A DNA stretch of 64,000 nucleotides from Psammoneis japonica (GCA_008632985.1 QPGO01000002.1:124001-188000), one strand, 5' to 3'; counted from the stretch's first letter, positions 4,323 to 56,899 are shown. Numbers and translations are program-made. The notes: generated by a model not told the origin, from the letters alone.

Positions 4323-4329
4323 AGAGTGA

Positions 4330-5750: not shown

Positions 5751-5761
5751 GTTCTCAGAAT

Positions 5762-6395: not shown

Positions 6396-6400
6396 TGCGA

Positions 6401-17696: not shown

Positions 17697-18249
17697 CGTC
17701 TTACTTCCGGCAAAATGTGTGTGTGCGGTGAAGGGGTGAAGATTGAAGATCTTTCGCACATGGTCGCGCCCCGGCTTGGGAGGGCGGATACCAGTAGCTT
17801 CAGGCTCGCATCATTTGACAGTGTGGAGTTCGCGCAGTGTCGCACCGGTAATAAGAGTACGTAGACATGAACACATAGGAACTTGAGCCTATGATGAACA
17901 AGCCATGTGCAGGGGTTCTGAGTCCTGTTGTACAGTTTGGAAGAGCTAACAATGGAACAAACAATCTCTCTAATGTGCTGTCTATCGCACTCTAGATTGC
18001 CAGTAGAGAGAGATAGAGAGAGAGAGAGAGAGAGCATTCTTCCAGGCAAATGCACACGCGTGGACATGTTTTGGTGCACTTGGGATGATGGAGAGTCCTC
18101 AAAATCCACACAAGAAGGGGAGACAACAAATGTGAGCTTGCGCAAATGGCACTGCCATCAAACGAACCAGAAAAACCGAGTTCCACAATTCAGAAAGCCA
18201 CCTCTCTGGTGGGAGCAAATCGACATGGTCGACATTTCCCGTTTTCATT

Positions 18250-21150: not shown

Positions 21151-21559
21151 AAATTGACCATGGACGCCTGTAGAATCTACACGTTTTTGCACTGAAACTG
21201 TTGTGTTCACACAATTTGTGCAAAAACAGACTTGACTGTTGTCGGGTCAGGCGCATTTTTGCAAATGTGTTGAAGAAAAATACGCCTGATCAGAAAACAG
21301 TCAAATCCATTTTCGCAAAGTTAAAATTCACTAAGGACAGACAGACAGACTTGTCATGGCATTGTCCTGCACAATTTCTACGCAATGACTCTACAGCGCG
21401 AAAGATTGCTGTTGCTCTGACAGAAAACGTGTCTTTCCGCACAGCCCCATAAAAAATGTGAATGACTGTCATGTGCGTGTCAACGGAAAGCACGACATGG
21501 ATTTGTTGCCTCACACAGAGACTTTTGGCGAAGTCGTCAGGAGCAAACGAGCAAACGAA

Positions 21560-22660
21560 AAAGCTCTGTGGCCATGGCGCTGAAGATTGTAGCGGCATTC
21601 CAAGTTTGGATTCGAGATGATTACTTTGATTTAACCCAGTGCCGTTTAAATTGTGTCAAAACCAACTTCGCACTTGACGGACACGATTGCCTTCACGCGA
21701 AAATCCGAAAGACGCAAGCACGCACTGTGCCGCGCACTTTCTTCGTCTCACAATCGCAGTTCTGGCAAGAAAGTGAAGCATCGCATCAACAACATCACCA
21801 TGTTGTCTTCTCTTGTCTTTGTGAACGTCGTGGTCAGCATCAGCCATCGTGACTTGATTGGAGTTGTGATTCATCGCAAGAGCGCGTGCGACTGGCTTCA
21901 TGCCGGTCTTTGGTTCGGATGTTGCACGATGCTTCAAGATCTCAACACAGTTGCCATCACGATGTTCTCGGCGGTTCTCTGCATGGCTTACGATGAGTTC
22001 ATGAAACTCATGGACACCTGGTTGCTCATCAAGTGGCAGAGCTTTCCGAGCGCCACTTTCACTCCCATCTGGAGCAAAGTCCATCTCTTCTTTGTCAAGC
22101 TCAAGTCATTCTCACTGAAGCACATGGAGCTTGCTGTCTTCGCATTGAAGGGAATCATCAAGTGTGTGGACTGGACGCGCGTTGCTTCTTTGTTCAAGCG
22201 TGCCGACAAGACAAGCGCCGCCGTCGTCTTGTTCAACGTCTGCCTGGCTTTCAAGAATTTCGATGTCAGTGTGGCCTCGTGGGATTTCTCTTCCGTCTCA
22301 TGTTGGGAGTGGCACTGGCCTTTCTCATTCACATGCACGTGACGGGATCGCATTTACCATCAACCGAGGACGATCTGTCTGGCCATCGCGACGACCATGT
22401 CAAGAAGCCTTGGAAGGAGCCAACGTCCAAATTCAAGAAGGGACAGTGCGTGTGTCATCGCCATTCAAACAAGACGTGGAGAGCAAAGATTTTAAGGGTC
22501 TGTTTTGACGATGACCTTGACCCGCACTACGACGTGAAATTGGGCGATGCACGCGAGAAGCAGACCACCGAGGACCACCTTTCTGACGAGCTCGGCTCAG
22601 GTCACTTTCAGGTTTTTATTGACATCTTTGACGACGATCCGGATTGCAACTTGTTGTGAG
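21560..22660 (+). pseudogene. Mutated ORF relic ending in a Tudor/SH3-like small domain
   Basis: FKKGQCVCHRHSNKTWRAKILRVCFDDDLDPHYDVKLGDAREKQT resembles the diatom (V)HFDD..PYY.(I/V).L.DGREKQT domain. Almost no Tyr; CpG retained. Confidence 0.5.
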
Positions 22661-23399
22661 GTGCTCAATGGGGGGAAGGGACATCGTCAGTGCAATCTTG
22701 TGACGATTTTTCCAACAAGATGTTCGACAGGGGAGGATCGCCGAGTGTCACATGTGGGTGCGGTGTGACGAGTTTGCATGTTGAATTCTTTGTTCAACTC
22801 GGGCTCTCTTTTTCTGAAAAAAAAAAGGCCTTTGCCATCGAGATCAGAGGGTGACCATCTTTGTACTTTTGAATGAGAGTTTGATTGATTGCATTGGGTC
22901 TTGAATTCAAGCTCGCATTGGATGCACATTCAATTCGAGCTGATTCCGAAACATGTCATTGTTTCCGAACAGAGCATGTGAACGAGAACAAGAGATTCAT
23001 GCGGCACTCAAACTCAAATTCGCACCAGCATGAAGGTGGTGCCTTCTTTTTCGAAAGTAGAGGGGCGGTTGCCAAATGGTCGAGAAAGGAAAGTTGAAGT
23101 CGAGGAAACTGTTCAACACGAGAAATTCTAGCTCCCTCTGCAGGAGACGCTTTGCCATTCTAATTCAGTTGGGCAATCTATTTTGGTTTCATTCAATCAA
23201 GTCTTGTACAATAAAAAGATTAAACAAACAAGAAAATTTAATCAACACTTCTCTGTCTTGTCGCAAACTAGATAAAAAGCACTGTTCGTCATTCGTGTCA
23301 CAGCTGGCACTCGCCATCGATCGATGCGCCACTGCCGGCGGACTGGCATGGCGCCCTTTGGACTAGCTGCGGACTTGTCTCTTGTTCAGTGCAGATTGA

Positions 23400-26300
23400 C
23401 AGCAGCCACACTCTGCTGGCAGTCATCAAGAACAAATGCCAACTAACCATGCAGCATCTCTGGTTGCAGTCAGGCTAAGTAGATCCATTCCAGCCACATG
23501 TCCCCTCAGATCGAAACCACAAGAGAGCAAAAGCCTCAATGCTCGAAACATTTTGTGTGGAAGCTGGAAAGAATGCAGCTTGATTGTGAAACTCAAGGCA
23601 CCAAGAAGGACATTTTCAATGCACTTTGCACGAATCGCCTTGGAGGCGAGAATTGCACCAGTTTCTGGTTGATCCATCACCCAGCGAGCAAGGTCGTGGG
23701 TCTTTTCTGTCACTGTTTTGGCCTGCTTTATGTCTTCTCTTTTGCTGCGGTGGGCCAATGGGGTGAAGATCCTTGAAAAGATGTCAACAAGCATGCCTCC
23801 TCCGTCTTCTTTTTTGATGCTTCCTGGAATGAGTGTGCACGGCAAATTTGCTTGCTTTCATTCTGCATCGAACATGTCCGCCATGAGGGGACGTCTGTTT
23901 CCAAAGCACATTGGAGGGCCTCGCCCACCAATGCAGAAACATGCGAATGCCAAGAGCGCAAAAGGCTCTCCAACCAACAATGGCCGTGTTGGCCTTCCAA
24001 TCGAAAAAGAAATCATCTCCTTCCTCTACGTTGTCGTCATGCTTCATGGCAAGTGAAAAGGCCAAGTGAATCAGATTCGAATGTCATCGCTGAGCCACCG
24101 TGTGGAACAGCAGTTCACCATGCCAACGATCCGTCAACCAATTGAGGTTGGAGATGTCGAAAGACATCAGAACTTTCTCTCGCGTTCCCATGCCAAGAGG
24201 CGCTTCGGGTCCCGCCAACTTGAGAGCTTCCTCCCTTGCACCGTCAACTTCTCCTTCAATCTCCTCCACACTTTTCCCAGACGCAATGAGCATCGCCCGA
24301 TTTCCCCCATGATGCAATCCGTTGTGACTTTCGCACTCCCCTGACACGATCAAGGCGAGCTAGAAGTGGAGCGAAAACGTCCATCTTCCACAGCTGCTCG
24401 GTGATGGGTCAAAGAGCAAGCACAGTTAGCCAAAGGAAGGAGCCCAGGTCTGCTTCTGTTGCAAATGAATCAAACCTGCTTCAACCACATTCGCTGCAAA
24501 ATCCTTCAGTGGCTGAAAACGCAGCGACAACATCCACCCGACCACACTCAATGATGGCAAACATCTTGTCGCGGATCCAACCGATCAGTGCGGTTTCCAT
24601 GATTTTATTGGCATTGCGAAGATGTGCAGAGCCTTCCACAACATCAGAAGCCACATGGCAGATCAACGCATCCGAGCCGATGGCCGTGTCAAGTGAATAA
24701 AAAAAACACGCTGTTTCAAAGGCCTCCACATCGGTTTCATTCGTGCAGTGTCCGAGTGTTCACCCAGAAGCCAAAGACTTCGACAATGACTCTGACAAAA
24801 ACAGCAACCTGCACCACCATCCGTGGCCACAAAGCTCATGAGGGCAAAAACAACCGACTCGGCAACATTGGGGAATCGCAAAGCGCATCCGTGAACGGCC
24901 CGAATCAGCACATGTTTCGGCACAGACCATGCTCTTGGCTTCCGCCGTGGTGGAGTCCTGCTCTTGAGCAGTCTTGGCAACGTAGCGCTTGACCGTCGAT
25001 ACGACATCAACAATGCGAAGGGCGACAATGTCCATGGCAAGATCGAGGACCTTGCAATGACGCGTCTTGATGTCTTCCAATCATTCAAGAACAATGAGCT
25101 TGACATTGCTGTCATTCTTGCCATGTTCCACAAGTTTGCACAAGTGACGGCGGCAACCCGAATTCCGTTCTTGCCAACGTCGTCCATGTTTTGGGCCAAG
25201 AACTGAACGGCCAAATCCTCCGACTGATTGAAAACACGAGAAAAGCACTTCTCCTCACAGCCATGTCTGTTTCGGCTTGGGAGGAATTCGTGCATGAGCT
25301 CTGGTGCATCGGGCATCAAGTGCTCTCCAAACAGCTTGTGAGCAACAAACACGGCAAGCGCCGCATCGGCACTTGGGCACAACCTCCCAGCAAAGCAGAG
25401 AGAAGTTTTGAGCAGATTTACGAAGAGAAACAATCCTGACAAGCATGCACTTGTCCGGCCATCAACAATTAAAGTGCCGCAGCAACGAGAATGCAACACT
25501 TGCCTTTCCATCTCGGATGGCAGCTTCTGCGCCATCATGAATTTCTTCAAGCCTGCCGCATCGACAAAGGCAGAGAAGGCGTCCGCGATTGCCGCAGCTC
25601 TGTCACCACTGCTGCTGTCCGATGATGCCAACAAGGACAAAACAGCATGGCCATGACGGCACTGCCCCGTGGTTGATGCAACACCAAAACCCCAAGCGTG
25701 TGCTTGGGAGACAAAAGCCAGCCATGCACAACAAAGCCCAGCTCAAAAGCTTGGGTGCAGCAGGCAGTTTTGCTTGGTGGTCATTGAAGCACCTCCACAC
25801 CACCAGACTGAGTGACAAGAGAGATGCTCTACAACTGCAAACAAAGCCCATCACCAAACAAGAGCATGTTTGGATTCAGCATTCACAGCTGCTTGCATCA
25901 AAGATGAGGGGCTTTCTCTGAGATTCTTTGAGCAACCCGTGGACATGGTCAAGCCCATTGAGTCCAGAACACCCTGCAGTTGACAAAGGAACTGAGAACA
26001 AAATGATGTCAAGATGCAAGAGTGCAAAGAAACAGGAGGAGGCACACAGAGTGATTGATGACAACAAGTCTCCTCTCTTGCACCTGCCACTTCAATGTTT
26101 CCAGTGGCATTTGGGGCTGCACACCTGTGCAGCATGCTTCCCACTGTGCCACAAAGAAGAAGAAGAATTGCAGAGACATCTGCATGACAATGAAGCAGTG
26201 CACCCCTCTTGTCATGGCAGACAACAAGTGTGCCAAGTTGTGTGTGAACAATCAACCCATGGTCAAGCTGTCAACAAAGAGCACATGATGGTGCTCTCAC

Positions 26301-28300
26301 TCAAATTGCTTGTGTGTCATCAAGCATCAAGGGAATCCACCATGGTTTGTCAAATCATTGCACAGGCTCCTTTGAGAAGAAACACCACCCAAAACAGCAC
26401 ATTCGCAATTGGGGCCACAATGCCATGACACCAAACAAGCCACATTGATTTTTTCTGCATTCTTGGCAAGCACCTCGCTGCACCCATCATGGCAGATGAC
26501 AAAGCACTGCTCATGGTTTGACTTGGCAAAGCACCCACATTTGTGCTGTCCAAGTCAACCAGCTGCATGCAGACAAACACCACAGCCATTGCACAAAACC
26601 AAGCCAGCTGGCAACACAAGAATGGCCCCATTTGTGACAGTTGAGGAGCAACCACAACCACAGCAGCCACACTTGATCCTCCTCAAGAAGCAGAGAAATG
26701 ACCTTGAGACTCCACCCCTGCTGCTGGAGACTTGCAACAAATCATCCAAAGAAGCTTCGCTCCCTTGCAGCTGAAGATGACCACTGCCCATGAGGGTGAA
26801 AAGAGGGGGTGGCCACTGGGGGGCATGGCTTTTTGTTTTTCTTTGTTCTTGTTTGTTTCAGCTGCAAACATGGATGTGACAATTGAAACACACACAATTG
26901 TTGCAATGGTCACATCACTGGTCACATCACAACAAAGATTTCATTTTGTGTGAAAACAGGCATGTGCACACAGCACCTGAGCCTGGAACAAGTCATGCTC
27001 TCTTTTCCAACTGAAGAGTTTCTTGATCCTGCTGAATGGTTTTGCTCACTTTTCAAATTTGAAAAAGAGTGCACAAATCTTCCTTTGAAAATGGCCGCTG
27101 CTGGGTGTGCAAGCAGCAAGAAAGGACTCCACAGTGAACCGCATTGTCCAGGTGCCCATCTACATTCCATGCTGCAAAACAAACTGATGTGCTGGTGCTC
27201 TCTCTTCAATCACTGGAGTGCAATTAAACTGAGCTGCAAACATGCCAATGTTGCACACTCAATCTTTCTCCCCACCTGTTCCTCATCACTGCATTGTTCC
27301 TTGCTTTGCTGTCATGATGATCCAAGAAGTCTTCATTCTTGCCTTGCTCATGAGTGTGGCGGATCTTGTTCAGTTTCTCCAACAAGGGTGGAGTGAGCCA
27401 CTTGTTTGCACTGAACACATGTCAGCTTTTCCTTTCCACCCATGACAGGACAAAGCTTTTCATCCCAAAGAATTTCTCACTTGTCACCCAGAACCTGCAA
27501 ATTGTGTTTTTGAGTGCTTGCCCACAAGCCTTGTGTGTGACTTGAGGCCACTGCAAGATTCTCTTTTCAACCACTTGAGTCAACTCAAGTGACAGCTGGC
27601 ATGGTGCCTGCCCTCCAGTTTTCTCTTTTTTGCGTTCTTCTTTCCATTCTTCTTCTTTCTCTGCTCTTGGCTGTGGCAGCAGCCACCTTTTTCTTTTTCG
27701 GCAAAACAACATCAAATCAACCAACTTGAGTGGGTGAATGTGCCAGTGTCTTTGTTCACATGCCAAGCATGGTTGAGGCTTGCAACCAAGGACCCTTTGC
27801 ATTTTGCCACTCAGTGGAATTTCATGCTTGTCTCTTGGGTTTTTTCTGAACACATTCAGAGTTCCTTGAAAATTTTTGTGTGCTGAGCCATGTGTGCTTG
27901 TGCTTTCCCAGAAATGCCACAAGCTTGTCCCTCAATGCTGCTTGTCTTGGCACGCTTGCTTGCCGCCAACAAAAGAGAAAACAACCACATCATCCTGGCA
28001 TCCAAGAGTGACCATGGCACCCTCATGACATGCCAAAGATGTGGGCGGCCTGTGCAGAACACCTGCAAAAGTCTTGGGCAGCTTCCAGCCACCACTTTCT
28101 TTCTTGACAAGTGAGTCTTGAATGTTGCGCCTGGTGGCAAAGCAATGAAATGAAAGAAGATTGAATGTGTCCTGTTGCCACGGGTGGCACTTCAGAAGGT
28201 TCAAAGATTCCACTGCTTTTGGCACAATGTGAAGAGCGCCTTGCAGTTGGCATGCCGCATCATTTCTTGGGCCACCATGAAAAACTCTCAAGCAACAAAG
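23400..28300. other. Unclassified TpA-depleted sequence (probable decayed transposon/ORF relics)
   Basis: Protein-like fragments on the minus strand at 23.4-25.6 kb (CpG retained). 25.7-28.3 kb lacks both TpA and most CpG. No domain recognised. Confidence 0.4.
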
Positions 28301-29900
28301 GATGATTCAAGAGCCCAGCTTCATCCAGTGGCCAGCTAAAGTGACCAGTTGGCAGATCTGCACTGTCTAGAATCCCTCAGACATGGTCCATGTTTCACCC
28401 AAAACTCCCTCCAACATGCAGTCTGTGTGTCCCCCAAAACAAGCATTTGTGCAAGGCTGTCAGGATGCACACAAGCTGTGTGGACTGTGTGTTGCCATGT
28501 GCAGCAATGAGTTCACAAGCAATGATCTTGATGGTGAAAACTCCACCGTCAAAGTGTGTGAACACTCCAATCCATTCAGGGGCACCAACAACTGAAGACA
28601 TTGGCTTCACTGTCAAGTCTGGCAGCCACTGCCTTGGAGGCTTCATTGCAATTCACCACCCACAGACCACCTGTGCTGGTCTGCAGAAGTCCCCACAACA
28701 CCAGCAGCAGTGTGCCCAGCATGCAGTTGGGGGCTGCGGTGAGTCATTTGCAGAAGCAGAGCATGTGATGCACAGCGCAACTTTCCACCAGCACCACTCA
28801 GCAAGACATTGGCAAACAATGACCCAAGACTGGCCCTGGTTGCCCCTCCAATCAAATTTTTGGGACTGTCCATCCCTTGTCCAACACAGGAGTCTGCAGC
28901 TCACAACTGCAAAGCAAGCCCACTTTAAAGTGCTCCCACGTGATCGACTCACTCTGTGGCCACTCTCAGTTGTGTTCCACAGTTCCCAAGGACACCATGC
29001 ACAAAGTGAAATGAGAAGCAGCCAAACAAACAAGGTCAAAGCGCACAAGGAGACCCTCAAAATGATCCCCAGGACTCCGCCCAACCTCAAGGACAGAGCT
29101 GTCAAGCATGGCACCAAGACTGGAGAGTGGCTGTGAGCGCACCCATCAATGCTGAATGGCACAAAACTTGCGCGCCAAGAGTTCCGTGACACACTCATTT
29201 TGTGGTGTGGCAGCACTCTGCTGGACCTCCCTGAGTTCTGCAATGGGTGCAGCCACAAAATCTCCTTCAACCACACACTTCAGGGCAAGAATGGTGGCCA
29301 AGTCATCTCACATTGGCAAGGCTTGCAAACCTTCCTGCCTGCATGCACAACAAACCTCTTGTCAACCCCGCTGGTTGCATCTGGAGAAGCCCCAGCAACT
29401 CCAACATTTCCCCAGGCAACACCAGTGCCACCTCCAACACAAGTCCAAGGATGGCAATTGTGAAGATCTTCCAGCAATGAGATTTTGGGATGGAAGGACA
29501 GACACAGTGTTGGATGTTTGCATCCCTGATGCGAGCACCAAGTCACACCCATCCAAAACACCAGAGGAGGTCCTGGCAGACCAAAAATGTGAGAAAAAGT
29601 GCAAGCACCTCAAGGAGCCCTGTCTTGAGCAACGCCGTCATTTCACTCCCTTCATTGTGTCATGTGACAGACTGCTTGGCAAGGAAGGCAAGGAGGCGAT
29701 GCTTTGCAAGCTCGCATCAAAGAAATCTGACAAGTGTTGAAAACCATGTTTGGAAGCATTTGGCTGTGTCAAGGCAAGGATGAAGGATGAGCATCACAAT
29801 GGTCTGGGCAACCCATTGTTGCCTCAGGGGATCCTGCACCCACACATCCCAGATCAGCTCCAGGCATCCCCATTGATGGACCCCAATTCAGTCAGACTGC
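28300..29900 (+). mobile_element. Degraded CRE-clade (restriction-like endonuclease) non-LTR retrotransposon, 3' part
   Basis: KTGEWL*AHPSMLNGTKLARQEFRDTLILWCG..LPEFCNGC....FNHTLQGKNGG (zinc knuckle) and DLPAMRFWDGRTDTVLDVCIPDASTKSH...EKKCKHL...CLEQRRHFTPFIVSCDRLLGKE match CRE C-terminal motifs. Confidence 0.85.
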
Positions 29901-30424
29901 ACTCACAAAGACAGAGCATTGTCCTGCCATCTGCAGAGATGGTTGGTGTGAAGCTGACAAGACAACAAAACCACACCAGCGCATTGACGCCGCGGCGCCA
30001 GGTGCCAGAATCCATTCAAATTTTGCACGCACAGATGGCAAAACTTCTTGCGCACGACAGCTGCTCCTTGCACTCATGTGACTGCATCAACTCTGCATGA
30101 CACTTGCTTTTTTGCATGAACACCTTGTGCTCCAACATTCCAGCAGCAACAATTTGGCTCCCACAGAGCAAAAATCCCAAAAGATGAGTTGCTTGATCAA
30201 AACCAGCACAAACCCTGTTGCACAGCACCAACGTTCAAATCATGGATCTGTGTGATCAGCTTCCTCCCAATCCAGCACAGAAACAGCATGGCTTGATGCT
30301 GCATTTGTTTTGCAGGCAAAAATCGAGTTTTGGGGTTGCAAGTCTGCATTTGCCAAGACACCAGGAGGAGCTGAACTTGTCAGGCCCCAGGATTTCATCC
30401 TTGAGTCTCATCATCTGGTGCAAT

Positions 30425-30534
30425 TGCAACGTGCAGCTGCCAATGAGAGTCAATGTATCACGGCGACGTGTTGCAGCCTTTAAATGTCACAAAGGGCGTG
30501 ACAAAAACAACCTTTTGTCTGCGTGCATGCTGCA
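30425..30534. repeat. 110-bp direct repeat flanking the YR element; partner at 37131-37240
   Basis: Ungapped alignment with 16 differences, all transitions. Confidence 0.93.
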
Positions 30535-30635
30535 TTGTGAATTCACAGCGGAGTGGTTCATCGCAACCATTGGGCAGGAGGCCAGGGGTTCGAAACCCTG
30601 AGTGGGAGTTGTCTGAAGCAACGTTGATCACTGTC

Positions 30636-30774
30636 GCGGCTCACGCTGCCCGTCTTGTTCCTTCTCCTGCGGCTCTCTAGTGCCAACTAGAGATCTTCCA
30701 ATGATGGGCTGGAATGGCTTTGCCAGCGGATGCGCAAGCCTCATTCCCAAAACCCAAGCTGGAACGGCAGGGCC
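30636..30774. repeat. Split direct repeat B (139 bp); partner at 30991-31129
   Basis: GCGGCTCACGC...GGAACGGCAGGGCC present at both positions. Confidence 0.95.
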
Positions 30775-30794
30775 AGAGGGCGGGAGAGGTGGGA

Positions 30795-30991
30795 GCGTTA
30801 AAAACTGTCTAGCGGCTTCTTGCTCTTTGTTGCTCTTCAGGAAAATGAGTGAAGCAAACGAGAAAAGAGCAGAAAAAACCGTTGTTTGCTCGCCAAGTTC
30901 GCGCAAGCACGTTCAAATTTGAATTCAAACGGTTTGCATGACCCAACGGTCAAATGTGGGTCATTTGCCTCGTCACACTGCACAAGGTGGG
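30795..30991. repeat. Split direct repeat A (197 bp); partner at 36809-37005
   Basis: GCGTTAAAAACTGTCTAGCGG...CACTGCACAAGGTGGG present at both positions. Confidence 0.95.
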
Positions 30992-33900
30992 CGGCTCACG
31001 CCGCCCGTCTTGTTCCTTCTCCTGCGGCTCTCTAGTGCTGACTAGAGATCTTCTGATGATGGGCTCGAATGGCTTCACTGGCGGATGCGCAAGCCTCATT
31101 CCCAAAACCCAAGCTGGAACGGCAGGGCCTTCCAGCGCCACCTGCAGTGCCGTGCACTTTTGGGAGGGTGGGTGGGTTGAGGCTGGAGGGCTGTGGTGAT
31201 CAGGCGTCTTGAGGATTTTGAGGGACGTCAGCATCAGGGTGGAGGACGAAGTCGCCACCGGCGAGCATGTCGCGAGCGAAGTTGCGCATGACTGGTTCTG
31301 CTTGCAAGTGCAGGTGTCGCAACATTTCGTCGGATCGCCAGCGGCCTAAGAGCCGAATGAGATCGGTGTCGATGCGGGCACAAAGGAGGGCCATTGCTCC
31401 GGCGGCACGAAGACACCGAGCGGCAATGTCTCGGGTGGTGAAGCCGAGATTAGCCGGACTGAGAGCAGCGACAGCATTGCGCAGCATGCTGGTGATGTCG
31501 GCCGGGGACACACGACGCCAGGTGTTGTTTTGAAAGCAAACACCAAGGGGTGTGTCAGGGAGCACACTGTGGGTGCGCAAGTGTTGGACACGGCGGATGA
31601 GGGCTTGAACCGGGCACAGGTGGGGGTGACCGGAAAGACCAAGCCCTTAGAACTTCGCCTCGCACTCCATTTTTCTGGGTGGCAAAGGTGAGAGTGGCAA
31701 AGTTTGCTGTGTTAAGGTGTGCAAGTGGAGCTTGCATGGCATCAAGGTGAGCACCACCAGACACAAGCCGGACATCGGCGAGACGAAAGGGAGTGGTGTC
31801 TGATGGTGTTGCGGTGTGCTCGCCAGGCCGTGACAGGAAGAAAAAGGCAAGCACAATCATTTCAGCAATGGCTTGTGTGCCCGGGGCATTGCTGATGGCT
31901 GCGGCGGTCATGATCCATTGCAGCACTGCAATTGGGACCGGTTTTACGCGGTCTGGGGGTGGATCCTGCTTCTTGTAAAAACGGACTTGCCGGGTGAGGC
32001 AGAAATCCATTGTGCCTTGGGATGTGTGGCGTGGGTCCGGGGACCCCATTGCAGCGAACGTTTGGCCAACCGAACGTGCGGCATCTTCAGCGGTTCTTCC
32101 ACGGACGGGATTGCCCATCGGCGCGAGGACTCCTGTGCGGTGTCGGTGCAAGAAGACTTGGAGGAAGACAACAGGGTCGTCAACGTCTTCGAGGAGTGGG
32201 TCGATGGCCAAAGAGGAGCAGAACTCTCGCCATTTGTCCCAATGGGCACTGGTGGCGGAGGCTCTGGAAGAGGCAACGCCATGCTGGACTGCGTGTTGAG
32301 CAGCATTGAGATCACGTATGAACTCAGTTCTGGTGGAGGCGTCCAGAGACGCCAGGAGAGTTTCTGCAGACAGTGCAAATTAAAGTGACGCAAAAATTCA
32401 CGGTTGGACAAAGACTGCAGTCGTGAGGCATCGTCAGCGGCAGTGTTGAGGTGTCCAGGCAGGCAGTCATGCAACCCCAAGTGGCGATGGTAGCGTTGGT
32501 GGCAGGATTGGCATCGAAGCAACCGGGAGGCGGGTTTGACGGCAGTGGTGGCACCTTTACGTTGCCAGCACATGGTGCCTGAATTGTCGGTGCGTGAAAG
32601 ACTGGTGCATTCACGGATGTCAAAACAGTCGGCGGCGCCGAAGGACTGAATGACACTGCCGGCAAGTTCCAGGTCTGTGTTGGTGATGGGACCGTGCGGG
32701 TTGGAGAAAGTGGAGAGTTGACTGCTGACACTTTTGGGAAAGGGCAGTCGCCACACTGCAGGACCCGCATCTCTCTGTTGACAGCGTCTGCAATTGCCGA
32801 AATGGAGAGTGGCTGCTCTGGGTGCTGTGGCACTGGTTGGCAGGAGGACGCCGCCTGCGCCGTGACCTGCAGCATCATGACAGCCGGTGAGTGTTGGTTT
32901 TGGTGGAACCAATTCTTGAATGCGAACGGGTCGGGCGTCTAGGGTAGATTCTAGATCCCGAAAATCATCTAGTGCGCAGTGCGCATTGGCGGAGATCCGG
33001 ACCCGTGAGTCCGGAGTGGTGTGTCGGAGATTTTCTTGTAGCACTGAGAAGAGGCCCCGGGAGCCGGGGATGGCAATGCTCAGAGAGCGCAGCTCTCCCA
33101 GTGATTTCTGACAGTCGGAGACGGCAGCACATTTATGTGTGTGGGGGGAAATCCTGGTGCAGCATTGTGTGAAGTCGGGCACACCGTCGGGGCGTGAGCC
33201 GGATGGTCACAGCGCGAGCATCTATGAGCCAACCCAGGACTTCTTTCTGCGTGGACCATGTGGCATCACCCTGGCGGAGCTTCTTGACGGAGACGGGCTC
33301 TTTGCGGGTGGCTGGGTCATGTGCATCGAGTGGGCGGAAGACGTCATCGAGAACATGCAGCATCACACGGTGAACGTTGCGCCGGGCTTGTTTCGAACCT
33401 TGCGCAGCGCCGAGGAAGTTGTCTACATAGATGTCGATGTATTGCAAGCGGCGGCGCCGACGCGGTCAGAGGTGTGGGTCGGGCGCATTAGGAATGGGCA
33501 CGGCCTGGGAAGCTGCGGCCACTTGTGGTGGTTGGTGCTTCGGCGGGCGGCTTTCTAAAAGCGATTCCAGCGGATGTGGCGGTGCTTGGACGTTGCGCAC
33601 CAAATCCAAATTGGCGACATCGGCAACAGTCTCCATTGCTGTGCAGAACAAAGGCGGGGAGTTGGCCCAGCCCATGGGCAAGCGTGTTGGGATTGCAACC
33701 AGTGATGGTTCGCCCGATTGGTTCGGGAACACTGCACCAAGTGTAGGAGCCTGTTCTGGCGCAACTTGCATGTGGCAACAGCCATCAGCCAAGTCGATCT
33801 TCATGGGACAGACCATGCCTTTTCTGGGATCGGCGAGCAGGATGCGGCGTAGAAGGCGGTTGAAGGCACGTCCAAATTGCATGGCTTCCATTGCAGCGTT

Positions 33901-36900
33901 GGGTTGCGTGGAGGGATTTAGCCCACAACAGGTGCAGTCCACAATGGGGCGGGGACGTCGACCATGTTGAGGCACCACGCCAATTGGGCTTGGGCGAAGA
34001 CCGGGGGTGTGACGCACTTCCTCATAAGGGATGACAACCCAAAAGCCTTTCTCGACCATGTCGGCCATGTCTTGGCGCAGAAACTCGATGTGTTCGTAGG
34101 CGGATTTGTGTGGACCCCTGGCGACACTTGCGTCTAGCTCAGCATGCGTCCATGGTGCATCGGCGGCGGTGATGGGGGCACCTCGGTGCTTGCAATTGCT
34201 CAGCAGTCGGTGTGCTGGGTGTTGCTTGACTCGGTGGAGTGGACCCCAATCGCCTCTGCCGCTGCGATGACGCAACAAGTGACTGAGACCTCTGTGACGC
34301 AGTGACGCAGCATCAGTTTGTATGTGCTCACCTGGTTTGTCATTGTAGATTGCGGCAGCAACATCCTGTCCACGGGCAGTGGGGCGGGTGCGCTGCCTCT
34401 TGAAATTCTCCACAGTCGGGGGTTGTGGACGTGATGGCGCATCGACCATCGCGGATGAAGGCTCTTGGCTCCAAGTCCCCGAACTTGGGCCATTGCCGAA
34501 GACCTGTTCGGTCTTCCAGTTCTCCTCACCCCAGGTGAGAAGGGTGGTCTGTTCAGCGTCTGTGTGGTCATTGCGATGATCACAGGATGAGCCACAGTTG
34601 GTGTTACATTGCCCTTTGTAATGGCAGGGAAAGCAACGGGGACGACCTTGGGCATCTTTGGGAAGTTCGATGTTGTCCCTTGCGCATCGGTTTTTGACAT
34701 CGCGTGACCTGACGTTGGGGCGGTCACGAAGGGTGGCGAAGCGGTCATCATAAGAAGGGTTGTGGACGCGCTGTTGCTCCCCATGGCTTGACTGATGGGG
34801 GCCCTGTTGGCAGGCTGGTGTTGAGTTGCCGGGGCCGGTGCGGCTCCCAGTGCAGAACTGGGGCTGGCAGCTTGCATGTTAGCGGGCAGGTGCGGGCGCC
34901 AGCACATGATTCCTTTTGCCGCTTCAAACACAACGTTCAATGGTGAGAATGGAAGCGGGTGAAGGGAGGCTTCTTAAGCCTTGAACCAATGGCGGACTTC
35001 AATCTGCGCGCAGCGTTGAAAATCCACGGGAAGGGTTGGGTGCCAAGTGGCCTGTGTTGCCAACTCGTTGGCACACCGGTCCATGTCTTGACGTTGATGG
35101 GTGAGCCATTGGACAACTGGATGATTGGCTCCAAGTGAGGCAGAAAGCACCAGGCGGCATCCATCGTAGGACTGCTGAGCGGCTTGCATTGTCGTCGCCA
35201 CGAGCGCCTTGTCTGGTGCTTCCAGGACCTGCGTGTCTTGGAGGGACGGGGCCGCAGCGCCGCCATGAATGTGCATGTACATGGCCTTACGATGAGCGAT
35301 CTGCTCGGCACTGTCTGGCACAGCAATCCCAAACTGGAATGGAGTGATGCCTTGGGTTGGCTCGTCTTGATTGTGACCAGCAAAATCCAACTGTACGAGC
35401 TTGGTGACAAGGCCAACCGTGACTGGCACGTCAAAATGAACGGCCATGGCCTGGCGTTGCTCGTCAATTGCATTTTGGACGACTGCCAGGCGGCCTGTCT
35501 TAGGCGCTGCGGCAAGGGCGGCCCACATGGGCGGTGGTGCTGTCTCGTTGAGGGCGTGGCACCAATTCACAAGCTTGGTGACACCAAAAGGTCCCCAGAA
35601 CTCATTGGGAACCTTGCCCCGGGCAGCCGCTTGTTGCCGTGCAGTGGCATCAAGTCGGAGTTGTCATTGTTCAGTGGTGAGCTCTTCAATGGCCTGCACA
35701 ACTGGCTGGAAGTGCTGAGCGGTGGGTGGTGCCCGACCCAGTCTCCCGGGGATGTCCCGCTCCACCTTGGCATCAAAAAATTGAATGAGGGCTTCGTTGG
35801 GGGGCGTGTCATGGCAGGCCAAGGTCGCGCCACAACAGATGCCACTTGGTTGTGGGCAGTGGCACAGCAGGCGACGCGCAAGAAGTCGAGTGGTGGTCGG
35901 ATGGCAGCCACCTTGTCAGCTGCCGTGGCGGCGCCGTGCACGTGCTGGTGGGCTTGTTTAGGATACAAAGGGTGTGCCAACAAGAGCGGCACGAACTCAA
36001 ATGGCACGTGCATTGCGTGTCGTGTCTGTGCGACTTCCGAGTTTGGTGCATTCTCAGCCAGATGCGGATGCAGGCCTTCCGCATCATTGGTGACATGCTC
36101 CAGGAGTGCGGCGTGGGTCGGCACCCTAGTCCCCTGCTGTGCTAAATTGAATGAGTCGTTCCTGAATTCGACCAGGGTAAACTGTCCACGGGTTAGGTCA
36201 CCCGCCATTGCGTGCGTCTCACCATCCCAAGGTTCGGCAGGTCCAACCACGGTCGTCGGATAAGTGGTGACGCGGTGCAGGACTTGGATCTGTCCTTCGT
36301 CCGCTGCGCCGTCCTCTCGGCAGTGCATGATAACGGCCATCGGCTGATCGTGACTTGACGCCGCTGCAACTCGCCCATGGAGTGCTCCGGGGTTGCATCT
36401 CGAAGGTCCCTGAACCGGAACCGCGAAATCTAGCATCGACTCGTCGCACACCCCCCGGTGTGGGTCGTCAGCGGCTGTGAGGTGGAAATCCCGATGCGTC
36501 GCAATGACCGGCGGCGCCGCCGGTGCGGCTCGTGCACCCGGTGGTGGTGGTGGCATGACGGCTCCTGCTGCTTGCGGTGCCACCGGAGGCACCGGGACTT
36601 GTGGAGGAGGGGGTGGTGGAGCGTTTTGGGCTGCCGTGGCGGCTGCTGCAGCTCCTCTTTGCGGTGGAGCAGGGTCGTTGGCATTTTGGGCGTTCTGGGC
36701 CCCTTGTCCTGCGTTTTGCTGCTGTTGCGCGTCCACAATGGACTTGCCAAAGGTTCTTCCTGCAAACAACAAGGTGCTGCGGCGGAGGCATCCTGCGCCA
36801 CGTCGATGGCGTTAAAAACTGTCTAGCGGCTTCTTGCTCTTTGTTGCTCTTTGGAAGAATGAGTGAAGCAAACAAGAAAAGAGCAGAAAAAACCGTCATT

Positions 36901-39339
36901 TGCTTGCCAAGTTCGCGCAAGCACGTTCAAATTTGAATTCAAACGGTTTGTATGACCCAACGGTCAAATGTGGGTCATTTGCCTCGTCACACTGCACAAG
37001 GTGGGAACGCGCAAAACTCTGTGCAGTTCTGCACGTTCCTTCGTGCGTGCCCACACTGTTCCGCCAAAACCGTGCAGTGTCAGCACACGTTGGTAAAGAG
37101 CCGTGTGGACGCGTGACACATGGGGAGGAGTGCAATGCACAGCTGCCAACAAGAGTTGATGCATCACGGCGACGTGTCACAGCCTTCAAATGTCACAAAG
37201 GGCGTGACAAAAATGACCTTTTGCCTGCACGCATGCTGCACAATGATGTGTTGTGTCAAAAGGTTGATCCAAGTGCTGTGCAGTCCAGCCCAATCAGCAG
37301 CATGACAATCAGAGTGGACCGCAAAGCCTTTTTTCCTGGAGCCCACTCCACCAAAGCTGTCTTGTGACAGCACACTTTCGGGCCAGGTTGCAGTTCTCCA
37401 AATGTCTTTGGCAAAGGATGCAACAGCTCCTCACCTGCATCTGCAGTGATGAGCACAGCAATGCGGGGTGAGGATGCCAGACAAGAAGGCTTGATCCCCG
37501 TGAATGCCAATTCTGCCAAAACCAATCTTGGCTGGAGTTCTTGGAGCCACCACAACACGCAATCCACTTTTGATCTGTTCCACAAAAGCACCAAAATGAG
37601 ACAGATTGCAGCTCAAATGAGAGGAGAAAGGCATGCCAGTGTGTTGGTGATGCAAAAAGGATGACTCAATCCCATGCTGATGTTTCTTTCCTTAAAAAAA
37701 AGCCGCACACCTTGTGCCACTTTGTGCAGAACTTGCAACATGACGTCCACCAAAAAAAGCTTGCTGCAACAATGACTTGTTGGCACAAAGGGATGTTCTT
37801 GAAAGCAGCAGTCAGGATGTGGCAGCAACACAACAAAAGTGCACAAGCCATTTGGAGCTCAAAACATCCAAATTGCAGCTCGCAGGCACTGTCCATGTGT
37901 GACTCCCCCTTGGCATCATCGTCACAAAAAATGTCCTCCTGCTCCTCTTGTTCCAACAATGTTGCTTTGGTTGATGCCTGTTGCACAGTCTGTCGGGTTT
38001 TTGCTGTGACAGTGCAGAATCTTTGCATGTGCAGCCTGTTGTCACTGAATGTCATCATCTCACATGGTGCAGAGTGAAGGACGACAACAGGGGCATGTTT
38101 GAGAGTCACGTGCTTTGCCCCGCATTTGCGCGAGAATTGGAGAACACTTCAGGAATCTCTGCACTCTGTTTTCTGCACTGCAGTGGCTGCCTTCTGCCAA
38201 AAGACACAACAGAAAGAATGCAATTGAGGCTTTGGGATGGATGGATGGATTTCACAACCACAACGTTGCGTGCATTGATGCTCTTGTCTTGCATGCTGTC
38301 TTTTTTACCGTGTCGTGTGTCGGCAACCTGTGAGGTGTGAGGTCCGGTGCTTTTTAAAAAGCGTTGGACCTCGCGAAAAAAGCAAACATCACTCGCCATT
38401 CGCCATGACGATAGTGGCGCCGAATCGCCGCAGCGCTTTGCAATCGTTTTGTATTCTCCAATAGCGCTAACAGACAACACGATTCTTTTGTCTAAGAACA
38501 CTATGGCCGCTTATAAATTGTCACAAAAAGTCAAAATCTGTCGCAGGTAGCGGTCTTTCACGTGTGTCTCAAACGCTCAAAAAACGGTATGTTGTCTCTT
38601 ACGCACTCGCCCGGTGCACTCGATTGTGATTGTACTACACATGTTGACATTGTCACACACGTTGATATTTTTCACTGTTTGTTACTTGATACTTTTTGGC
38701 AGAGTAGCCAAGCTCGGGATCCGTGCTGTGCTATGATCTCTGCCGCTTGACTCAACTCACACATGACTATCATTGCTGTTCTTACTTGTAGTAGCAATTT
38801 ATGGCTGTACAATCAGAACGATACTTTTTCTTCTTCTTTGCTTCAAGTTACGACTCCTTACACGTTGGATGCGTCCGAAGCCGAGGAGCAACGTCCACTC
38901 ATTTTTGAAGTATTGGCACCCGTCTTTTAACTGCTCTTCTCGGAATTTAAGTAAGTTGGCCACCAGGAGAAACTCGTATCCTTCGTTGGTGTGGACTGGA
39001 CGGATCAATGGTCTCACTCTATCCATACAATTCTCCCTTTGTTTGCTCTCTTGCCATTTTTCCCTACCTAGACGGCGGCGCCGTTCTGCCAAGAGGCTTT
39101 GAAAGACGAAGACGCCGTGCTAGCAGCGGTTTGGTCAAGTCCATTGCAACGTTGATGGAAATCGTACTGGACGATTGCGCATGTGCCCTGATTCAGTTTG
39201 TCGCTCGGTACGCTCTTTTTTATCATCTAATCTTTGTAAGTCGAGCCATCAAATTCATCAGCAGCAAGCTATCGTCCAAACCCAAAAAAGGAAACTGCTT
39301 TGGGCTGAAGCATGTACTACTGGTGCTAAAGCGATCCAG

Positions 39340-44010: not shown

Positions 44011-44264
44011 ACGTTGAAAGGTTCGCCATGGCAGAACCGGTAGCTGCACCCGCAGAAATGGCAACCACAGCCCATAGACCCATGATATGATACCTCAGGT
44101 GCTGTGCCAACAGTCAATGCAACCGAATGGGGGTGAATCAGCCTGACTTTAGAGAACAATGTCATGGCGTAGTGGTGGTACAAATCGTACCTTGAACGGC
44201 TACGCAGAAGACTCCGACCGCTGAAACGTCAATTACAGAGCCCCAAACGCATCACTTGGCGCGA

Positions 44265-47200
44265 TCAAAGGGGGGGAGTGATAAAGCCAAAGAACTCGAG
44301 TTCGTTGATCTGATGACTGCCACCCCCTGTCTCTGTCACATGGTAACGAATGAGTTTGTACGCCGCGCTCGGAATGGACAAGATAACCTGTACCACCTGG
44401 TTGCGTTCTGAAAATAAAGCTCCTTCCTCGGTAGCATTGTAACAGAAGATATCAACGTAGGTCACACCGTCATTGGATCCTTCAATACAAAATTTAGTTG
44501 GATCCCGGGTTGGCACATCGTTGCCGGAAGTTATGGTGAAGTTTGTAATCGTAGCGCTTGTAGCAAACTCAACTTGAACCCATTGTGGCGGTCCGTTGCA
44601 GCACCATTTCGAAGTCGTGGGACCAACATGGTTGTTGAAAACGTTAAACGCGTTCTCTCCACCAAAGCCTTCCTTGCTGCTCGCCGTTACGTCGAGCCAA
44701 CCCCATGATGGGTCACTTTCTCCACCCACTGTAGCATTACAAGGTTCAGCAGGGCAAGTCAAATCGTTGCCAACAAGGGCATCTGTGCCAAGGGCTGTCA
44801 AACCACTGCCAAGAACCGTAATGGTGGCTGGCGGGGCAGAGGGGACAGTCGATGGTGAGGCCGAAGGCGTGGCGCTGGGGTAAGATGATGGCAAAGCTGA
44901 AGGCGACGCACTGGGAGACACGCTGGGCAATTCAGAGGGAGCGTGACTTGGCGCATCTGAGGGGACGTTGCTTGGAGAAACCGATGGAGCATCACTTGGA
45001 ATGTCAGACGGCGCTGCGGAGGGAACTGACGAGGGTTCCGATGACGGCATGTCACTTGGTGCAAATGAGGGCGATCCCGAAGGAACGGATGAAGGAGCAG
45101 ACGAGGGAACAGATGATGGCGCATCACTTGGTGCCGTCGAAGGGTGCTCTGAAGGAACATCACTTGGCGGCTTTGAGGGTGTTTCCGAAGGCTCACTGCT
45201 TGGGACAACGCTTGGTGTGTTGGATGGGAGATCACTGGGAGCTACAGATGGAATGTCACTTGGCAAATCAAAAGGCGCACCAGAAGGTACATCACTTGGG
45301 CCTGCAGATGGTGAGGAAGATGGCACAAAACTCGGGACAGATGATGGGTTTGTCGACGGAACATTGCTGGGTGCCAAACTCGGAAGAGCCGATGGGTTCG
45401 TTGATGGCAACGTAGACGGTTGAAGAGAAGGCACATCACTCGGCTGAGCGGATGGACTAGTCGACGGGGCATTACTGGGAGCCGCACTTGGGGTTGTCGA
45501 AGGCGTAGTTGAGGGGGCAGTCGAAGGCGATAAGGACGGCATCCTGCTCGGTTCAGAAGATGGAGTCGTCGTTGGCTGATCTGATGGACTAATCGACGGG
45601 ATATGACTGGGAGCAGCACTCGGGACACCTGATGGGTTTGTTGAAGGCAACGTAGACGGTTGAAGAGAAGGCACATCACTGGGCTGAACGGAGGGGCTAG
45701 TCGACGGGATGGCACTGGGTGACGAACTAGGGCCAATCGAAGGCACTATAGACGGGTGCAGAGAAGGCACATCACTCGGCTGAGCGGATGGACTAGACGA
45801 AGGGACATCACTGGGAGCCGCACTTGGCATTGCCGACGGAGTAGTAGATGGCACCGTTGATGGGGTGAGAGACGGGCCATCACTCGGTTCTGCCGAAGGT
45901 CTTGTAGAAGGTACATCACTGGGTGCTTCACTTGGGACCGCAGATGGAGTAGCCGAGGGCACCGTTGAAGGGGTGAGAGACGGGACATCACTTGGTTCCG
46001 CAGATGGTATTGTTGAAGGCATGTCACTAGGATCAGCACTCGGCATTGCAGATGGAGTAGTAGAGGGCACCGTCGAGGGTGTCGTAGATGGAATATCACT
46101 CGGTTCTGCCGATGGTGTTGTAGAAGGTACATCACTGGGAGCTGCACTTGGCATTGCCGACGGAGTAGCAGAGGGCACCTTTGATGGGGTGAGAGACGGG
46201 CCATCACTCGGTTCTGCCGAAGGTCTTGTAGAAGGTAAACCACTCGGCGCTTCACTTGGGATCGCAGATGGAGTAGCTGAGGGTGCCGTTGAAGGGGTTA
46301 GAGACGGGACATCACTTGGTTCCGCAGATGGCATTGTTGAAGGCATGTCACTAGGATCAGCACTCGGCATTGCAGATGGAGCAGCAGAGGGCACCGACGA
46401 AGGGGTGACAGACGGGGTGTCACTTGGCTCCACAGATGGTCTTGTTGAAGGCACGTTACTGGGAGCTGAACTCGGGACTGCCGACGGAGAAGTAGATGGA
46501 ATATCACTCGGTTCTGTCGATGGTGTTGTAGAAGGTACATCACTCGGAGCTGCACTTGGCATTGCCGACGGAGTAGCAGAGGGCACCGTCGAAGGGGTGA
46601 GAGACGGGCCATCGCTCGGTTCTGCCGAAGGCACGTCACTCGGCACTGCGCTGGGGAATGTAGATGGAACTGCAGAAGGAACTGCTGAAGGCCCGAGAGA
46701 CGGGACATCGCTTGGTTGTTCAGAAGGTGTTGTAGAAGGTACATCACTGGGAGCGGAACTCGGGACTGCAGACGGAGTAGTAGAGGGCACCGTCGAAGGT
46801 GTCGAAGACGGAACATCACTCGGCTCTATCGAAGGTGTTGTAGAAGGTATGTCACTCGGGGCTGAACTCGGCATTGCCGACGGAGTAGTAGATGGCACTT
46901 TTGATGGGGTGACAGACGGGCCATCACTCGGTTCTGCCGAAGGTCTCGTAGAAGGTATATCACTCGGCGCTTCACTTGGGATCGCAGATGGAGTAGCTGA
47001 GGGCGCCGTTGAAGGGGTGAGAGACGGGACATCGCTTGGTTCTCCAGATGGTATTGTTGAAGGCATGTCACTAGGAACAGCACTCGGCATTGCAGATGGA
47101 GCAGCAGAGGGCACCGACGAAGGGGTGACAGACGGGGTGTCACTTGGCTCCACAGATGGTCTTGTTGAAGGCACGTCACTGGGGGCGGAACTCGGGACTG

Positions 47201-56506: not shown

Positions 56507-56899
56507 GTTGGTGAATAGGGCGTCGTCGCGTTTGTTTGGTCTCAGCTAGTACGGTACGGCGTAGTGGCCATGGGCAAATGAATTACTGTAGTATGTGCGG
56601 CGCCCGCCCGAAACTTCCAAAACCTTTTTCGGAAAATTTTGGCAATCATGTTCATTGCAATGTTGCCCATTGGATATAATGAGGGCAATAAATTCGTGGA
56701 AGTACACAGAATGTCATACTTACAAAATACATGTTGTGACATAAAAGACCTCTAAACCCAACAGATGTCGAAAATGTCAAGACTGGCAGCCGCGCCTCAC
56801 CACTTTCGTTCCCGCCATTTTCAATTTTTTGAAAATTTGCCAAAGAGAAAGCGCAACAAGACGAGGACATGCGCCAGAGAGGGAGAGAGAGCACCCCGA

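Follow-up and report, generated by a model that had tools for sequence, protein, structure and literature searches.

Fungal repeat-induced point mutation (RIP) changes C to T mainly at CpA and raises TpA. Here we describe a stretch of 64,000 nucleotides from the diatom Psammoneis japonica (GCA_008632985.1 QPGO01000002.1:124001-188000; the whole stretch is called the window, and positions are counted from its first letter) in which TpA is the dinucleotide that has been removed. At 30636-37004, the minus strand of the window carries a dead Ngaro/PAT-like tyrosine-recombinase (YR) retrotransposon of this diatom host. We consider it highly probable that a real, repeat-confined conversion of TpA to CpA or TpG has acted on this element and has removed its catalytic tyrosine. 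As in the RIP of ascomycetes, repeat-confined and dinucleotide-specific transitions destroy transposon genes; unlike in RIP, TpA is removed, CpA is enriched and GC rises, and no stop codons are created but TAA and TAG are lost. RIP itself was rejected as an explanation, as it would leave an excess of TpA.

The closest described process is the TpA-only hypermutation of the chlorarachniophyte Bigelowiella natans. According to the main text of a preprint of April 2026 (bioRxiv 10.64898/2026.01.13.699255), 231 of the 302 nuclear point mutations in mutation-accumulation lines fall into two integrated viral regions; 230 of these 231 are A to G or T to C, all 230 on TpA, and the rate is ∼1,000-fold above background. 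The same text reports 124 clusters of TpA-poor, CpA+TpG-rich 1-kb windows and an enrichment of reverse-transcriptase and DDE domains in low-TpA coding sequences, and its authors propose an ADAT2-like deaminase as the candidate, without experiment (10.64898/2026.01.13.699255). The words CpG, diatom, retrotransposon, context and trinucleotide do not occur in it (10.64898/2026.01.13.699255). A process of this kind has already been published for a different lineage, represented by one chlorarachniophyte and two integrated viruses, and the notion of TpA-specific conversion as an unprecedented phenomenon has to be given up, because the 2026 preprint describes it in another alga.

As far as that text goes, the two cases have in common TpA to TpG/CpA changes on both strands of foreign or silenced DNA and a TpA-poor, CpA+TpG-rich signature, the B. 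natans targets being integrated DNA of nucleocytoplasmic large DNA viruses (NCLDV) and of virophages. Our case differs in its host, a diatom (stramenopile) and not a chlorarachniophyte, in its target, a YR retrotransposon and unclassified repeats, and in being near saturation (observed/expected ratio (o/e) of TpA 0.04–0.21, versus 0.45 in the NCLDV region). It also shows a slower loss of CpG that is coupled to the loss of TpA and an effect of the flanking bases, neither of which figures in the main text of the preprint. The B. natans rate was measured directly in mutation-accumulation lines, whereas the diatom rate is read from sequence alone. The host, the target, the near saturation, the coupled CpG loss and the flanking-base effect, together with a systematic read-out in which Tyr is replaced by His or Cys, are what is new here; literature searches on TpA-depleted or hypermutated diatom or transposon DNA brought up, besides the B. 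natans preprint, only work on fungal RIP and APOBEC and unrelated papers. Adenine deaminases of the ADAR and TadA/ADAT2 types are alike in changing A to G next to a 5′ U or T, but in the accounts available they act on RNA, and on DNA only in engineered or special cases, and we treat this link as a lead only.

Results

To place the composition of the element, we used an alignment-based scan of metagenome contigs, which yielded 79 related loci, many of them ∼6 kb long; a scan with a single reverse-transcriptase (RT) piece as query found no relative. Between 31200 and 36772 the GC content is 0.587, and the o/e ratios are 0.82 for CpG, 0.21 for TpA, 1.56 for CpA and 1.41 for TpG. The 79 relatives have a CpG o/e of 0.835 ± 0.157, from which the element is indistinguishable (z = −0.1), a TpA o/e of 0.650 ± 0.090 (range 0.37–0.84; z = −4.9 for the element), and a CA+TG o/e of 1.180 ± 0.093 (1.47 in the element, z = +3.1). 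In comparison with 48 relatives matched for GC (0.52–0.62), the element retains 26% of the TpA (8.6 versus 32.7 per kb) and 107% of the CpG (69.0 versus 64.4 per kb), which suggests that about three quarters of its TA dinucleotides have been lost. The preliminary description of the element as CpG-rich and TpA-sparse is thus borne out, and so is its claim that TpA conversion is faster than, and separable from, the loss of CpG, also in view of a neighboring block with a TpA o/e of 0.13 and a CpG o/e of 0.98. It had further ascribed the CpG loss to methyl-CpG decay: the slower CpG loss stands, and methylation as its cause is an assumption.

The split direct repeats of the element, in the order A1 - coding region - B1 - A2 - B2 on the minus strand, provide an internal clock. 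A1 (36809-37005, 197 nt) forms the 5′ end and is 95% identical to A2 (30795-30991, 197 nt); B1 (30991-31129, 139 nt) is 93% identical to B2 (30636-30774, 139 nt), which forms the 3′ end. We compared A1/A2, B1/B2 and one flank pair over 447 aligned columns. CpG is intact in both copies at 20 sites and lost in one copy at 6, TpA is intact in both copies at 4 sites and lost in one at 3, and at 10 sites one copy has CA where the other has TG. If a single CpG had decayed twice, once in each copy and at the rate observed for single decays, only 0.17 such swaps would be expected; the ancestral dinucleotide at these sites is therefore best read as TA, converted independently in each copy and on either strand.

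A hand calculation restricted to the A and B pairs gives a CpG loss of 3 in 38 copy-sites (∼8%). The five swaps in these pairs imply ∼5 hidden pairs changed in the same direction and ∼15 ancestral TpA sites, so that 9 of 30 TpA copy-sites survive (∼70% loss). Per site, TpA conversion is roughly ten times as fast as CpG decay, as an order of magnitude. Once CpG and TpA sites are set aside, a single substitution and a few indels separate the copies of the A and B pairs over 336 nt. The insertion is therefore young by ordinary measures, and the earlier designation of the element as young is plausible.

The conversion is most clearly read in the lost tyrosines. At the position of the catalytic tyrosine of the recombinase, the window has the His codon CAC (31316-31314, minus strand) in the motif GRWRSDEMLRHLH, as previously noted and as located here by homologue alignment and motif matches. 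Among 148 aligned database homologues the corresponding column reads Tyr in 141, Cys in 3, His in 2 and Phe in 1. It is also Tyr in 46 of 46 motif matches, which come from 45 of the 79 metagenomic loci and most of which read exactly GRWRSDEMLRYLH; the regular expression left the nucleophile residue free, and the other 34 loci gave no match. The nucleophilic tyrosine is absent from the window copy. A second motif, FFFLLRPGEY in the family, reads FFFLSRPGEH in the window, again in agreement with the first account of the locus: CAC at 31818-31816 (minus strand) replaces a Tyr that is invariant in 25 of 25 reference elements, and the Leu to Ser change beside it (TTA to TCA, 31833-31831) is also a TpA to CpA change.

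We extended the comparison to all conserved columns, using 25 reference elements per open reading frame (ORF). Of the 15 columns that are at least 60% Tyr, the window retains Tyr at one and has Cys at four, His at four, Phe at three, and Arg, Leu and Ala at one each. All five columns that are Tyr in 25 of 25 references (33777, 32483, 32078, 31818 and 31316) are His or Cys in the window. The four positions with at least 90% Tyr are His at three and Cys at one, with no Tyr left, and neither residue is found at these positions in any of the 79 relatives wherever they are covered. The His and Cys codons at these conserved positions are CAC, TGC or TGT, i.e. TAY with T to C or A to G. By comparison, 59 of 84 conserved Arg columns are kept and 11 have changed to His, Cys, Gln or Trp. 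Over all aligned columns, Tyr is expected 38.6 times and observed 12 times, and the corresponding figures are 54.7 and 93 for His, 17.2 and 42 for Cys, and 124.1 and 136 for Arg. Environmental homologues that lack a conserved Tyr have mostly His or Cys as minority residues (for example, three Cys and two His among 148, and eight His among 32), which hints that the same process may act in their source organisms.

Survival of TpA depends on the flanking bases. We estimated it against the relatives and against the genes of the window; the sites of the element itself enter both comparisons, and the numbers involved are low. CTAA/TTAG survives at 0.67 relative to the relatives and at 0.22/0.55 relative to the window genes, CTAG at 0.55 and 0.23, and TTAA at 0.43 and 0.58. 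The respective values are 0.18 and 0.05/0.08 for ATAC/GTAT, 0.12 and 0.05 for GTAC, and 0.10 and 0.04 for ATAG/CTAT, and ATAT is gone altogether (0 against 413 and 0 against 73). The ranking is alike against both baselines: TpA between a 5′ purine and a 3′ pyrimidine (R-TA-Y) has nearly disappeared, and Y-TA-R (TTAA, CTAA/TTAG, CTAG) survives best. A strict R-TA-Y rule was dropped, as the five swaps within the A and B pairs lie in Y-TA-N contexts. Since Y-TA-N sites are also converted, context modulates the rate of conversion and not the eligibility of a site. That R-TA-Y is most and Y-TA-R least susceptible is a testable constraint on the responsible enzyme.

The element lies in a continuous TpA-poor repeat tract (17951-38450) with a TpA o/e of 0.05–0.21, a CpG o/e of 0.39–0.98 and a CpA and TpG o/e of 1.3–1.8, the sub-blocks of which differ in their CpG loss. 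Within the tract, TpA and CpG o/e are 0.07 and 0.48 at 17951-21300, 0.13 and 0.98 at 21401-23200, 0.05 and 0.39 at 23301-30800, 0.17–0.21 and 0.76–0.81 in the element, and 0.10 and 0.75 at 36151-38450. Further blocks are found at 1-6050 (0.04 and 0.22), 56751-58000 (0.12 and 0.27) and 60851-63950 (0.04 and 0.20). CpA and TpG reach an o/e of 1.3–1.9 in the repeat blocks, and the four blocks at 1-6050, 17951-21300, 23301-30800 and 60851-63950 combine a TpA of 0.04–0.07 with a CpA/TpG of 1.64–1.87. These four would be called by cut-offs of the kind used for TpA-poor, CpA+TpG-rich windows in B. natans, and the element itself (TpA 0.21, CA+TG 1.47) lies just under the second cut-off. At 26001-27000, the deficit of CG+TA (∼120) is balanced by a surplus of CA+TG (∼125), as calculated by hand. 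No block of the window shows a low CpG with a normal TpA, and the longest runs free of TA are 1,666, 1,530 and 1,331 bp. Loss of TpA with CpG left intact is seen most clearly in the block at 21401-23200, which contains no recognizable protein family.

Host genes are spared. Gene-bearing 1-kb windows have a TpA o/e of 0.4–0.9 and a CpG o/e of ∼1, and the boundary of the TpA-poor DNA lies at most ∼250 bp from the start of a cysteine synthase gene. Counted on both strands, stop triplets in TpA-poor blocks are 1,396 TGA, 120 TAA and 103 TAG, as compared with 1,180, 470 and 648 in gene-like DNA. Because TAA and TAG are depleted, the poor blocks contain many long ORFs in all frames; 61 long ORFs from TpA-poor blocks other than the element matched no Pfam family.

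The borders of the element were defined by contigs from public sequencing runs. Four contigs from run X1 and one from run X2 join 30635 straight to 37005, skipping 6,369 bases, with at most one ambiguous base at the joint and no detectable target duplication. This joint corresponds to the unoccupied site of other host-repeat copies, and the element is therefore a discrete insertion of 6,369 bp (30636-37004) without target duplication. The ends agree with the repeat ends obtained from a BLAST self-match and pairwise alignment. The preliminary span of 31200-36772 is thus too narrow. The description of the element as structurally near complete holds for its termini, which are complete and exact, and fails for its reading frames, which are broken at five places. 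The host repeat is TA-poor and of very high copy number, with a summed word depth of 114,352 at 30400-30633 and of 46,021 on the other flank (37005-37240), versus only hundreds over the element. It contains an internal 110-nt direct repeat (30400-30635 plus 37005-37240; 85% identity, ∼337 nt apart once the element is removed) and may be a satellite. A self-comparison of the window found no second copy of the element, and the TpA-poor blocks have nearly no similarity to each other.

The A1-ORFs-B1-A2-B2 layout is one that we take to be typical of Ngaro/PAT-like YR retrotransposons. The element is like these members of the order DIRS in its split repeats, in the order ORF1 - RT/putative RNase H - YR and in the absence of a target duplication, but its recombinase goes unseen by Pfam, its RT is recognized only below threshold, and its ORF1 and ORF2 are split by one in-frame stop. 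Intact relatives encode an ORF1 of ∼700–740 aa, an ORF2 of ∼820–870 aa, and an overlapping ORF3 of ∼390 aa. In the window, the remnant of ORF1 (34882-36811, minus strand) has a gag-like position and no assigned function, and is split over two frames (36811-35570 and 35663-34977), neither of which is the frame of ORF2. No Pfam family matched ORF1, in the window pieces or in an intact relative.

A TAA stop directly upstream of ORF2 (34879-34881, minus strand) has its counterpart at the same place in relatives, where ORF2 begins straight after a single in-frame stop in every listed locus that has both ORFs in one piece. ORF1 and ORF2 share a frame with one stop between them in loci L001, L009, L022, L029, L035, L036, L044, L064, L071 and L076, an arrangement that suggests translational readthrough.

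ORF2 (31947-34878, minus strand) codes for an RT, as judged from RT homologues, RVT_1 matches in relatives and a family profile, and for a putative RNase H. The RT piece has 50 homologues with 37–61% identity in environmental and MMETSP data, 7 of which carry a precomputed PF00078 assignment. Of 28 relatives, 22 have an RVT_1 match at E ≤ 0.01 (best 3.9e-5), none of which reaches the Pfam cut-off, and a family RT profile matches HIV-1 RT p66 with an E value of 0.0023. Pfam searches with the pieces of the window element returned nothing useful at E ≤ 0.01 and, when relaxed, only RVT_1 at E 0.12. The family consensus carries YVDVFVDDF (an FVDD motif) and, further on, DASGxGAGG. On this sequence evidence we classify ORF2 as a reverse transcriptase; conserved motifs of the D...E...D...D type that follow the RT in the ORF2 alignment are presumably RNase H-like. 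Some 130 residues of ORF2 lie beyond these motifs. A methyltransferase-like domain is the trait by which PAT and DIRS1 elements are told apart from Ngaro.

ORF3 (31203-32379, minus strand) overlaps the end of ORF2 and is assigned to Cre-like tyrosine recombinases by its homologues and by a structural model of a relative. A search with the C-terminal recombinase piece gave 1,745 homologues at E ≤ 1e-3. Pfam contains no family that matches either the window recombinase pieces or the ORF3 of the relative, and a profile search of the PDB with the recombinase alignment returned 0 sequences at E ≤ 1. The predicted structure of an intact ORF3 (L009, 381 aa; predicted local distance difference test score 88.8) finds Cre chains as its best Foldseek matches (probability 1.00, TM 0.58–0.70, E 2e-6), followed by Xer and integron integrases. 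The model thus assigns the ORF3 family a two-domain tyrosine recombinase (Cre/integrase) fold, as predicted for this relative and not for the broken window copy. Residues R178, K230, R314, R317, W340 and Y348 are each at least 90% conserved in 49 recombinase sequences, and we take their order and spacing (R, K, RxxR, W, Y) to match the catalytic residues of Cre in its customary numbering. The family is like Cre in its predicted two-domain fold and probably in the R...K...RxxR...W...Y arrangement, with 23 residues between the second Arg and the Trp. It is unlike Cre in sharing only ∼12% sequence identity and in an HxxR box that begins with Arg, and in the window copy the nucleophile is replaced by His.

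Among the related metagenome contigs, as noted for L008, L012, L027, L043, L044 and L062, many are about one element long and some are circularly permuted. L044 contains the recombinase motif twice (at 185 and 6119, 5,934 nt apart). This would be expected of tandem copies, of circular forms, or of contigs assembled across the split repeats. In L033, TpA is 0.37, CpG 0.49 and CA+TG 1.58, and the single conserved Tyr position that it covers is still Tyr; this locus is possibly another hypermutated copy, of different origin.

Compared with intact relatives, the window copy has four frameshifts (two in ORF1, one in ORF2 and one in ORF3) and an in-frame TGA. In ORF2, the TGA is found at 33468-33466, in a column that is too variable among the relatives to point to an ancestral codon, and the frameshift lies near 33143; that of ORF3 lies near 31647. 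The RT motif reads YVDN in the window (AAC, 33420-33418) and YVDD in the family. All depth in 10 contigs from run X1 has C at 33420, which restores the Asp, and the change is a private CpG to CpA transition (coding strand) of the window copy. In view of these frameshifts, the TGA and YVDN, the loss of the tyrosine is not the sole lethal lesion, and the window copy is dead several times over. The preliminary claim that loss of TpA suffices for inactivation can thus not be read from this copy, in which four frameshifts, a TGA and the CpG-type YVDN change are also present.

We compared 2,179 X1 contigs with the element: 481 are at least 99% alike, 671 are 95–99%, 840 are 90–95% and 187 are <90% alike. 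They differ from the window at 289 variant places by 240 transitions and 49 transversions. Among the 40 of the 289 places listed, X1 reads TA where the window has TG (31832, with A in the X1 contigs, where Leu TTA became Ser TCA) or CA (31852). CA and TG are swapped at six of the listed places, and CpG to TpG/CpA changes private to the window include 31373, 31460, 33420, 33773 and 33861. Single-base length differences between the X1 contigs and the window occur at 35798, where X1 contigs have an extra G, at 34767, at 33143, and at 31647-31649, where some lack one base, and at each of these four places part of the X1 depth agrees with the window. Runs X2 and X3 contain next to nothing of the element.

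Discussion

We conclude that, very probably, dinucleotide-specific transitions struck the DNA of the element after the repeats were last copied from one template. They changed TpA to CpA or TpG on either strand, in repeats only, and at ∼10 times the per-site rate of CpG decay. Tyr is erased to His or Cys because TAY is the only sense-codon family obliged to contain TA, and the lost tyrosines include the recombinase nucleophile (TAC to CAC). TAA and TAG stops are removed as well, leaving long, TGA-bounded false ORFs in all six frames, and ordinary lesions of the window copy (indels, a stop and transitions at CpG) come on top. Silenced or foreign DNA is probably the target of an enzyme that acts at the DNA level. 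The simplest chemistry would be that adenine is deaminated in a 5′-TA-3′ context, which is much less certain than the conversion itself. The process is probably of the same kind as the TpA-only hypermutation of B. natans; its role, as a defence or as a by-product of silencing, and its enzyme are matters of inference.

Several points weigh against this interpretation. Conserved Tyr could be counted at few columns (4 and 15), and most changes are polarized by comparison with relatives whose RT shows only 42–52% identity. One of the three patterns used to fetch the relatives contains Tyr (DG[FY]Y; the other two contain none), so that mutated relatives may be under-sampled. Position 31316 is not among the 40 of 289 variant places listed for X1, and a copy from the same organism with a Tyr codon was not seen there. 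X1 may be the assembly data of the window itself, with a platform that is not on record, and its read-level support is then not independent. The internal clock assumes that the split repeats were identical at insertion. Finally, CpG loss accompanies TpA loss in the oldest blocks, and the B. natans process may thus not be the same system.

The same DNA-level process could have a different chemistry, in which the thymine of TpA carries a modification, such as oxidation to 5-hydroxymethyluracil by an enzyme of the TET/JBP type, so that it mispairs with G and yields T to C. This would leave the strand-symmetric signature that we observe, and T to C at R-TA is indistinguishable from A to G at TA-Y. 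There is, however, no evidence for such a base in Psammoneis japonica, and in the main text of their preprint the B. natans authors favor an ADAT2-like deaminase, likewise without experiment. We regard thymine modification as unlikely, and as a variant of the proposed explanation and not an alternative to the conversion itself.

Editing at the RNA level is considerably less probable. An ADAR-like enzyme could turn adenosines that neighbor a U into inosine while the transposon RNA is double-stranded, with the change being fixed by reverse transcription before integration; the element is a retrotransposon, its 5′ U preference would match ADAR as described in the Discussion of the B. natans preprint, and X1 contains many diverged copies. 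The two strands are hit about equally, however (conserved Tyr to His 4 versus Cys 4; CpA 1.56 versus TpG 1.41), and repeat blocks without recognizable coding sequence are even more TpA-depleted than the element. In addition, the A and B repeat copies within this one insertion carry opposite outcomes, CA versus TG, and the B. natans mutations arose in integrated single-copy DNA, according to the preprint's main text.

We hold a base-calling or assembly artefact to be very improbable. If modified bases at TA and CG (5-hydroxymethyluracil, N6-methyladenine, 5-methylcytosine) were miscalled by long reads as CA or TG depending on the read strand, this would explain the joint loss of CG and TA, the CA/TG swaps between copies and the single-base frameshifts, and the platform is on record neither for the assembly nor for X1. 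Yet the X1 contigs were built from exact 31-letter words, contain 40% of the sampled words and reach 315 kb, unlike what noisy reads would give; 481 of 2,179 of them are at least 99% alike, and every frameshift of the window is backed by part of their depth. Within the same blocks, TTAA and CTAG are among the sites that survive, and the same signature was obtained from Illumina reads in B. natans, as stated in the preprint's main text.

That no special process is at work, the family being TA-poor by codon usage or UpA avoidance and the His a random substitution in an old pseudogene, is refuted as far as these data allow: TpA is mildly low everywhere (0.4–0.9 in window genes, 0.65 in relatives), but the element lies 4.9 standard deviations below the 79 relatives, it is specifically His or Cys that has replaced conserved Tyr at 4 of 4 and at 8 of 15 columns, TA-free runs reach 1,666 bp, and the split repeats diverge very little outside CpG and TpA.

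If the TpA conversion in the diatom and that in B. natans are the same process, it would be widespread among marine protists and would act on transposons as well as on viruses. It is conceivable, although we would sooner doubt it than assert it, that diatoms and chlorarachniophytes share an old, RIP-like defence that runs opposite to fungal RIP, i.e. a DNA-level change of TpA to TpG/CpA in silenced transposons and integrated viruses at more than 10 times the rate of methyl-CpG decay. Such a shared defence would most simply be an adenine deaminase with a T-A-Y preference; the erasure of Tyr codons would preferentially kill enzymes with a catalytic tyrosine, such as transposon recombinases, and the removal of TAA and TAG stops would fill genomes with TGA-only ghost ORFs.

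In practical terms, the Tyr columns of transposon proteins and CA/TG swaps between paired repeats can serve as a detection assay that needs no mutation-accumulation lines and is applicable to any genome. Long false ORFs arise where TAA and TAG are missing over kilobases, ages of TpA-converted repeats will be overestimated when they are dated by divergence, and diatom repeat libraries built from converted copies will miss homology.

Other Features of the Window

The genes next to the repeats are intronless and comprise a cysteine synthase, a proteasome subunit, a leucine-rich repeat protein and a 2,749-aa Pro/Ser-rich repeat protein. In a homologue search, the cysteine synthase (16614-17696, minus strand) is 82–88% identical to proteins from Fragilaria, Fistulifera, Grammatophora and Leptocylindrus, which places the host among the diatoms and not with Bigelowiella, whose genome is rich in introns; an atlas search with the same protein returned only clusters dominated by plants. 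Its N-terminal signal ends ...ALSCA|FTP, which we take to resemble the ASAF-type plastid-targeting motif of diatoms.

An inverted duplication relates 6395-8241 to 53798-55589 and 44071-44435, with 96–99% identity over 671 and 789 nt. It comprises the 5′ part of the giant Pro/Ser-rich gene, brackets ∼46 kb, and may reflect either a genuine segmental duplication in inverted orientation or a fault of the assembly. The minus strand at 44265-55939 contains two intronless ORFs of 1,201 and 2,749 aa, which are made of 36-aa (108-nt) and ∼85-aa (∼255-nt) Pro/Ser-rich repeats; the opposite strand is also open for hundreds of codons. By their sequence, the two ORFs look like a mucin-like or cell-surface protein.

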